Shown: positions 34,444 through 34,600 of the stretch, piece by piece | How the letters are laid out: each line of letters opens with the position of its first letter | How positions within the stretch are numbered: position 1 is the first letter of the stretch | DNA from: Escherichia coli | Lineage (GTDB): Bacteria; Pseudomonadota; Gammaproteobacteria; Enterobacterales; Enterobacteriaceae | DNA length: 64,000 bases | Direction: 5' to 3' (one strand) | Assembly (NCBI RefSeq): GCF_030013205.1 | Contig: NZ_CP122648.1 | Position numbers and translations under genes: made by a program | Notes under the pieces: model-generated | What the model was told of the DNA's origin: nothing | The model's input: the letters and a program-made list of their open reading frames with translations, nothing else | The model's database searches: none

Positions 34444-34600
34444 GAGTCCCCAGGAGCTTACATTAAGTAAGTGACTGGGGTGAGTGACAAATCTGTCCGG
34501 AACAGATTTGAACACCGTGTAACGGTGGCCCGTAAGGGCGAGGCTCATGGATGAGCCGAGTAACTAGCAGCCAACGAAGAGGCAGTTTGAAGGATGAAGT
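34444..34600. repeat. ERIC (IRU) element, second copy, same long variant
   Basis: ...gagtccccaggagcttacattAAGTAAGTGACTGGGGTGAGTGacaaatctgtccggaacagatttgaac...; near-identical architecture to the copy at 19225-19397, including the internal acaaatc...ggatttgaac...ggcc...atggatg segment. Confidence 0.75.

Follow-up and report, generated by a model that had tools for sequence, protein, structure and literature searches.

The window analysed here, a 64,000-nt stretch of Escherichia coli DNA, shows the gene order dxs - yajO - (pentapeptide-repeat gene) - pgpA ... queA / acpH - (485-aa ORF) - malZ. Gene annotation was taken from ETEC4079, which is 99.997% identical to the window over 35 kb. Two repeats of the ERIC/IRU type are present, one in the dxs-yajO spacer (ERIC A) and the other, the main subject of this work, in the intergenic region between queA and acpH (ERIC B), and each of them contains a nested segment, referred to below as the cassette. 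The features considered are the following:

33239-34309, minus strand: queA, divergent neighbour of acpH
34401-34402, no strand assigned: left TA flank of ERIC B, a putative target-site duplication, from the comparison of filled and empty sites
34403-34603, plus strand: ERIC B, a 124-bp ERIC/IRU palindrome with a net 77-bp nested insert, from a three-way allele alignment
34486-34564, plus strand: nested four-hairpin cassette of ERIC B (GAC...GAGTAAC), missing from ERIC-only alleles with identical arms, delimited also by its MFE fold and by a covariance model (CM) score of 66.3 bits
34488-34510, 34513-34527, 34528-34539 and 34542-34557: hairpins hp1, hp2, hp2b and hp3 of cassette B in the MFE fold, with an outer pair 34539/34560
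34604-34605, no strand assigned: right TA flank of ERIC B, which contributes the A of the acpH ATG, from reading of the sequence
34605-35186, plus strand: acpH (ACP phosphodiesterase), from the ETEC4079 annotation and translation
35207-36664, minus strand: hypothetical ORF of 485 aa between acpH and malZ (islet 1), given as context and not part of the element
about 19185-19386, plus strand: ERIC A, the sister copy in the dxs-yajO spacer
19268-19347, plus strand: nested cassette of ERIC A (CM score of 74.6 bits)
20608-22179, plus strand: 523-aa pentapeptide-repeat protein between yajO and pgpA (islet 2), given as context only

With respect to the two islets, the 485-aa ORF gave no Pfam family above cut-off, the weak match obtained being to DUF3700 (18 bits versus 27), while the pentapeptide-repeat protein is annotated in O157:H7 as the T3SS effector EspY3. 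The window also contains a tnpA gene of the IS200C family (40332-40923, minus strand) between proY and brnQ, whose 5' hairpin RNA corresponds to Rfam STnc490 (141.8 bits, 40800-40923). This insertion of approximately 706 bp is missing from strain 104 (NZ_CP029164), which is otherwise collinear there.

The limits of ERIC B were established by aligning the alleles with ERIC plus insert, with ERIC only (THO-008) and without any element (K-12). Its termini read TACAC...GTGTA and TA is found on both sides (34401-34402 and 34604-34605), the filled site being ATAATC-TA-[TACAC...GTGTA]-TA-TGAAT. The empty site of K-12 and O157, ATAATCGATGAAT, is one base away from the predicted ATAATCTATGAAT (CGATG vs CTATG). 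The TA duplication is clean at another locus, the yeiS-preT spacer, where the empty site is ...ATT-TA-TTTAG and the filled one ...ATT-TA-[TACTC...GAGTA]-TA-TTTAG. The acpH ATG corresponds to positions 34605-34607, and the same ATG is the RefSeq start in identical genomes; the right-hand TA supplies its A and therefore ERIC B abuts the start codon. The sequence-only reading had the element begin at 34444, which is too late and cuts off around 40 nt of the left arm, and end 5 bp before the acpH ATG, which is incorrect given that the right-hand TA supplies the A of that codon.

Assignment of the element to the ERIC/IRU family is based on several features. The core CCCCAGGAGCTTAC...GTAAGTGACTGGGGTGAG of the imperfect palindrome of around 127 bp is present, and the ERIC-only allele measures 124 bp plus TA; both copies in the window share the core CCCCAGGAGCTTAC...GTAAGTGACTGGGGTGA. 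Terminal inverted repeats, TA termini and TA duplication were all found, the latter clean at yeiS-preT and one base off at acpH. The cassette is located in the right arm of the ERIC, directly after GACTGGGGTGA(G/A)(T/C)GA (the GAGYGA motif), and a net 77-78 bp is inserted at the same point in three loci, with a fold z-score of -8.5, as corresponds to an ERIC with an internal insertion. A scan of the element against Rfam gave nothing at the gathering score and, at E <= 10, only a weak match of the ERIC core (34435-34482) to V_AS5 (Vibrio RNA AS5; 18 bits versus a cut-off of 96), which probably reflects the existence of ERIC-like repeats in Vibrio.

The bounds previously proposed for copy A, 19225-19397, were likewise corrected to approximately 19185-19386. 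Pairwise alignment of ERIC A and ERIC B gave 83% identity over about 200 nt, and the anchor GACAAATC-N11-GATTTGAAC has exactly two occurrences in the window and none in 100 shuffles, which bears out the initial observation of two ERICs with common arms and the same internal segment. The covariance-model scan identified only these two cassettes in the window, apart from a weak match inside xseB (16234-16300, plus strand, 13.7 bits, E around 1e-3 with a rough calibration) that was considered as a third cassette and judged to be probably a chance match. The inserts of A and B are identical at 58 of 80 positions (72.5%), the differences in their stems are mostly compensatory (AAATCTGT/ACAGATTT vs AAATCCGC/GCGGATTT; GGCTCAT/ATGAGCC vs GGCCCAT/ATGGGCC), and the arms of A and B correspond to different ERIC lineages. 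This degree of identity, along with the different lineages of the arms, indicates that A and B are not recent copies of each other. The idea of a single subfamily, as opposed to independent decay products, thus holds in one respect and fails in another: the presence of a homologous insert at the same internal site in both means that the shared segment did not arise by independent decay, but recent mutual copying has to be discarded.

In a population survey of complete E. coli genomes (5,426), three spacers, queA-acpH, dxs-yajO and yeiS-preT, were each found empty, with ERIC only or with ERIC plus insert. At queA-acpH, most genomes, including K-12 and O157:H7, are in the empty state, with a 92-bp spacer; the ERIC-only state (+126 bp) was observed at an identity of at least 99% in around 820 genomes, including THO-008 and Nissle, and the ERIC plus insert state (+203 bp) in 139 genomes, approximately 2.6% of complete E. 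coli. Outside the insert, the last two alleles are 100% identical. For the dxs-yajO spacer, 142 genomes have the full-length allele and many others have one that is 78 bp shorter and 99.5% identical; the spans at yeiS-preT were 396, 318 and 193 bp. Most E. coli with an ERIC at the acpH and dxs-yajO loci have a version free of the insert whose arms are 99.5-100% identical, which means that ERIC and insert segregate separately. The cassettes of A and B are partly linked, since 164 genomes carry at least one of them, both being present in 96 and only one in 68. As for copy number, the dxs-yajO ERIC has a median of 5 matching places per E. coli genome, while for cassette B the median is one place per genome and a second close copy was not found in any of the 5,426 genomes. 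Cassette A differs by 8% from the cassettes at preT and yehK, and the overall range of differences between cassettes at different loci is 8-28%. In E. albertii, ERIC plus cassette is present at dxs-yajO, the same locus as copy A.

The RNA predicted for ERIC B consists of a long ERIC stem with four small hairpins branching off (-85.1 kcal/mol, z = -8.5), and the opposite strand gives a z-score of -8.0. Conservation of this structure in the cassette was analyzed in a MAFFT alignment, made from sequence only, of 78 copies among the matches listed, a sample in which hp1, a conserved hairpin, served as the anchor and a few genomes predominate. RNAalifold showed compensatory double changes in 13 of 20 pairs in these 78 copies among the matches listed. 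When the four-hairpin structure was specified, 96.6% of the cells could pair, versus 35-42% when the partners were slid by 1-3 columns; double-change cells amounted to 205, compared with 47 +/- 6 in shuffles and a number that none of 500 shuffles reached, and compensatory changes were located at 16 of 24 pairs (again for copies among the matches listed). Six hp1 pairs are invariant because of the design of the search and carry no weight. As judged from this alignment, covariation in all cassette helices is strong, and the cassette is an old, structure-constrained module. G-U pairs exceed A-C combinations by 45 to 18 (2.5-fold), a weak strand asymmetry, and the orientation with respect to co-directional flanking genes is only slightly biased (24 sense versus 14 antisense, both comparisons being among the matches listed). 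Both biases are weak, and constraint at the RNA level and at the DNA level are not separable.

A weak BLAST match led to the region 3' of the 5S rRNA in rrnD of K-12, where the segment located between T1 and T2 has the same four hairpins and linkers (GACAAATCCGCCGGGAGCGGATTTGAACGTTGCGAAGCAACGGCCCGGAGGGTGGCGGGCAGGACGCCCGCCATAAAC). This segment interrupts a second, partial 5S 3' tail, with the arrangement GAGAGTAGGG/AACTGCCAGACATCAAATAAAAC..T1 vs CCGAGTAGGA[cassette]AACTGCCAGACATCAAATCAAGC..T2, and the stretch from T1 to T2 at the distal end of rrnD (locus L004, 1395-1630) has the appearance of '5S 3' tail + terminator' repeated in tandem. Many expression vectors contain this inter-terminator region of rrn operons, known as 'rrnB T1T2'. 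The rrn segment resembles the ERIC cassette in the order of its four hairpins and in its linkers (GAC, GAAC, ...ATAA), and aligns with cassette A at 70% identity, the differences including compensatory changes. It differs in being inside a duplicated 5S 3' tail and not an ERIC, in having Watson-Crick pairs in hp3 where the ERIC cassette has tandem G-A, and in being nearly invariant across genera.

The relationship was evaluated with a covariance model trained on ERIC-nested copies only, without the rrn copies, and restricted to the part 3' of the search pattern, with the exception of the four starting GAAC bases. This model matched the rrn T1-T2 segments of Escherichia, Citrobacter and Enterobacter with 29-33 bits (E around 1e-10 to 1e-11) and copies from Chromatiaceae and Ectothiorhodospiraceae with E from 1e-12 to 1e-15, all E-values being rough; copies from Alteromonadales, some of them as inverted pairs, were also matched. 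It gave no match on five chance-match control loci, and the Rhodanobacter copies, alike by eye, were below significance. The ERIC insert is thus shown to be homologous to the rrn T1-T2 segment. Among the papers searched, none tied the ERIC insert to the rrn T1-T2 spacer, to rrnB or to CsrA, which does not make the link a new one.

The distribution of the cassette was surveyed with the anchor pattern over 100,044 species genomes, which gave at least 120 loci, about 5 of those listed being chance matches. Five contexts could be told apart among the remaining matches listed, the rrn T1-T2 spacers of Escherichia, Citrobacter and Enterobacter being one of them. Among the matches listed, cassettes in the right arm of an ERIC were present in Escherichia, E. 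albertii, Yersinia, Serratia, Dickeya, Pectobacterium, Citrobacter and Enterobacter, and also in a soil proteobacterial MAG. In Pectobacterium betavasculorum, ERIC plus cassette (L090, 122-215) is located around 180 bp upstream of queA, in antisense as in E. coli. The equivalent motif in the left arm is used in Serratia oryzae, with around 30 cassette copies among the matches listed; these similar copies are whole ERIC plus cassette units. Both arms are occupied at three loci (L028, L033 and L048), and the cassettes of Budvicia are at another site and in another orientation. Repeats other than ERIC carry the cassette in Rhodanobacter, Rheinheimera, Pseudoalteromonas, Aliiglaciecola, Chromatiaceae, Ectothiorhodospiraceae and other gammaproteobacterial MAGs. 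In Alteromonadales, without ERIC arms, cassettes form inverted pairs 60-270 nt apart (L063, 6356-6537, in Aliiglaciecola; L082, 427-814, in Pseudoalteromonas), and another locus (L079) shows an array of related hairpin units. ARAGORN and Rfam scans of the non-enterobacterial loci showed neither tRNA nor 5S as a regular neighbour: at one locus a 5S is located around 600 nt away on the other strand, and one has a duplicated tRNA 5' fragment beside the cassette. In a groundwater gammaproteobacterial MAG (L110, minus strand, near a contig end), the 20-nt 5' end of a class II tRNA (GGAGAGGTGGCCGAGCGGCT) directly precedes the cassette, and the same GGAGAGGTGGCCGAGCGGCT begins an apparent full tRNA around 250 nt downstream, an arrangement that recalls the duplicated 5S tail of rrn.

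We interpret the feature next to acpH, with a probability of about 0.7, as a composite of two nested, non-coding, hairpin-forming repeats, an ERIC/IRU and a four-hairpin cassette of around 80 nt inside it. The cassette would most likely be selfish or neutral DNA whose propagation or retention hinges on its fold, and the cassettes in the window may be old residents of a haplotype and not fresh insertions. This view is favoured because of the lack of a second close B copy in E. coli, the 8-28% divergence between loci and the presence of the cassette at locus A in the outgroup E. albertii. Cassette-free alleles would then have arisen, most likely, by loss or replacement of the ERIC centre, for example through recombination with cassette-free ERIC centres. 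When cassette-free and cassette-bearing alleles are compared at the three E. coli loci, 4 bases (GAAT, GAAG, GAAC) are replaced by 81-82 nt, and no flanking duplication was found at the cassette junctions of these three loci. Target duplication of GAGYGA, slippage between direct repeats and correction of a quasi-palindrome against the opposite arm were considered to explain the junctions, and none of them fits all three loci; a clean GA^A insertion fits only the left-arm and rrn cases. Since neither insertion with duplication nor deletion by slippage explains the junctions, the direction of the change at the acpH locus is not established.

It is also possible, but in our opinion unlikely, that the cassette is itself mobile, non-autonomous but active (a MITE inside a MITE), with site and orientation specificity after GAGYGA in ERICs or after GAGTAGGA in the 5S-tail copy, the two copies in the window being separate integrations. 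Occupation of the same position at three polymorphic E. coli loci, use of the equivalent left-arm motif in Serratia oryzae and of both arms at three loci, interruption of the duplicated 5S 3' tail in rrn, presence in unrelated repeats outside Enterobacterales and the different site and orientation in Budvicia would all be in agreement with such mobility. The junctions, however, are unclean and devoid of target-site duplication, no B-type donor was found in the 5,426 E. coli genomes, and the differences between loci argue against a recent burst; neither clean duplicated sites nor, in E. coli, near-identical copies at different sites of one genome, as would be expected of a nested MITE, were observed. 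No associated transposase was found either, and the cassette is not phage-borne: of 14 matches in a scan of viral contigs, 12 were due to chance inside a phage gene and the 2 real ones were inside ERICs. An origin from IS200/IS605 elements, or mobilization by the IS200 copy of the window, was considered and rejected, since the ends of that copy show no similarity to the cassette: the highest-scoring local alignment to its region reached 19-22 over only 15-22 aligned bases.

Returning to the composite of two nested repeats, its conserved fold could also be the outcome of a process acting on DNA and not of functional selection, namely intrastrand templated correction in short palindromes during replication or repair. 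We consider this quite unlikely as the source of the compensatory pattern. It would be consistent with a fold equally strong on both strands, with the weak strand asymmetry mentioned above and with the palindrome-driven ERIC rearrangements on record, according to the title of Sharp and Leach (1996) as given in PMC3696847. Nevertheless, such a process leaves unexplained the conservation across bacterial orders of unpaired linkers (GAC, GAAC, GARTAAC) and loop motifs, as well as the 2.5-fold excess of G-U over A-C.

The loop motifs deserve some attention. Among the 78 copies from the matches listed, 64 have GGA in the loop of hp1, 60 in that of hp3 and 57 in both, and the two cassettes in the window have it in both loops. 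Each of the 60 GGA loops of hp3 among the matches listed conforms to CA(N)GGA(Y)G, and around 50 nt separate the GGA of hp1 from that of hp3. Binding sites for CsrA/RsmA, shown in hairpin loops, include the CAGGAXG repeat of CsrB and the SELEX consensus RUACARGGAUGU. In terms of sequence, 57 of the 78 copies among the matches listed would thus have the two or more loop GGA motifs per RNA associated with CsrA/RsmA targets, and the cassette is similar to RNAs of the CsrB/RsmZ type in presenting A(N)GGA in the loops of two short hairpins around 50 nt apart. In contrast to these RNAs, there are only two sites per cassette and some lineages are devoid of GGA. The GGA loops resemble CsrA/RsmA sites, and this is a resemblance only. 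No discussion of CsrA binding to ERIC was found in the literature search, the papers with both terms dealing with ERIC-PCR typing or genomics.

It could be argued that the cassette is a functional RNA module, such as an element for mRNA stability or processing, or a platform with two sites for an RNA-binding protein (CsrA/RsmA or another), spread by MITEs and rrn operons. We find this very doubtful. The covariation in every helix, the preservation of loop sequences while stems vary, the likeness to the CsrB repeat and the SELEX consensus, the maintenance of the cassette in the rrn T1-T2 spacer across genera and the excess of G-U over A-C would be in line with such a role, as would the sense orientation to the adjacent gene in 5 of 5 E. 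coli loci examined. Against it, GGA loops are missing from the left-arm type of Serratia oryzae and from several Pectobacterium copies, the orientation bias in the whole sample of matches listed is weak, and most E. coli do without a cassette at these loci and show nothing to compensate for it. The lack of an Rfam family match and of papers discussing CsrA binding to ERIC, along with the hp1 anchor of the sample and the predominance of a few genomes in it, also weigh against it. The broadest version, in which the ERIC insert and the rrn T1-T2 spacer would be one ancient, structure-selected cassette, with A(N)GGA loops as a portable platform for CsrA/RsmA or another protein, scattered by MITEs into leaders and trailers of gammaproteobacterial genes, is a long shot. 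If it were true, strains with and without the cassette at acpH, yajO and preT would differ post-transcriptionally.

Whatever the nature of the cassette, the element may influence the expression of acpH. The ERIC sits at a TA overlapping the start codon and therefore supplies the sequence just upstream of the ATG, including a Shine-Dalgarno-like AAGGA motif 10 nt before it, so that the entire translation-initiation region of acpH is replaced. The mean predicted probability of being unpaired between -15 and +5 is 0.69 for the empty allele, 0.37 with ERIC and 0.365 with ERIC plus cassette. It would thus be the ERIC stem, and not the cassette, that lowers the accessibility of the ribosome-binding site of acpH, through pairing of the terminal stem across this region. 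A simple promoter scan of the queA-acpH spacer showed nothing promoter-like, and for this reason transcription through the element is assumed. If the element is co-transcribed in the acpH leader, the leader RNA may form a long ERIC stem from which the four hairpins of the cassette branch off, and, if the promoter is in the first ~90 bp of the spacer, the whole 5' leader of acpH is derived from the ERIC. An ATG at 34551, in hp3, is in frame with acpH in cassette-bearing alleles only and would add 18 residues (34551-34604); it is not the start used by RefSeq.

The sequence-only reading had also proposed the ERICs as substrates for the recombination that delivered the two islets. ERIC B had no part in acquiring the neighbouring accessory genes, the states of ERIC and islet being independent. 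The 485-aa ORF was found in 1,126 of the 5,426 E. coli genomes irrespective of ERIC state, and the pentapeptide-repeat gene in around 931 of 5,426 whatever the state of the dxs-yajO ERIC. When the queA-acpH spacer was compared in genomes with and without the 485-aa ORF, every combination occurred: a query consisting of ERIC B, acpH and the ORF revealed all six combinations of empty, ERIC or ERIC plus insert with presence or absence of the ORF, with coverage classes of 100, 97 and 92% with the ORF and 35, 32 and 28% without it. In O157:H7 both islets are present, the acpH site is empty and the dxs-yajO spacer gave no match. Strain 104, on the other hand, carries both ERIC plus insert copies, 100% identical, and neither islet, with pgpA directly after yajO and malZ directly after acpH; this is the very situation, both ERICs in place and both islets missing, that had been named beforehand as evidence against a role in acquisition. 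That the two copies provided dispersed homology for the arrival of the 485-aa ORF and the pentapeptide-repeat gene is therefore scarcely credible, proximity (0.6 kb and 1.2 kb in the window) being all there is in its favour, while a conserved gene (acpH or yajO) stands between each ERIC and its islet, ERIC sequence was not found at the islet borders and there are only two copies in the window, besides the existence of all state combinations and the cases of O157:H7 and strain 104.

The finding is ordinary in itself: an ERIC with an insert of a known type, as a segregating allele unrelated to the adjacent accessory genes. The three E. coli loci nonetheless constitute a natural series (empty, ERIC, ERIC plus cassette) that can be used to separate the effects of ERIC and insert on the neighbouring gene, and a modest additional lead comes from the cassette family, its rrn homologue and the GGA loops. 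If this is not already described, the rrn T1-T2 stretch present in many vectors gains a family and a testable function.

[quoted passage not shown] (1991), as reviewed in PMC2229807, and it is well characterized with respect to its TA termini, its inverted repeat of 7 bp, the long stem formed by its RNA and its effects on the stability of mRNA (PMC2229807, PMC3184786, PMC2267715). The element at acpH is similar to these in being an imperfect palindrome of about 124-127 bp with a conserved core, intergenic and in several copies per genome, with TA at its termini, the 7-bp repeat TATACAC/GTGTATA, TA duplication and a long RNA stem-loop. Internal insertions of around 70 bp in ERIC were reported by Cromie, Collins and Leach (1997; Mol Microbiol 24:1311) and by Sharp (1997; 24:1314), according to their titles in PMC3696847. 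As far as those titles indicate, the extra segment at a fixed internal site, in an element that still folds as RNA, is common to the 1997 interrupted ERICs and to the one analyzed here, and an ERIC with an internal insertion that keeps its RNA fold is of a kind known since then. Copy B differs from described ERICs in the divergent lineage of its arms, whose end reads ...GAAGGATGAAGTGTATA and not ...GAAGTATGACGAGTATA, and in abutting a start codon, so that the leader of the gene is ERIC-derived.
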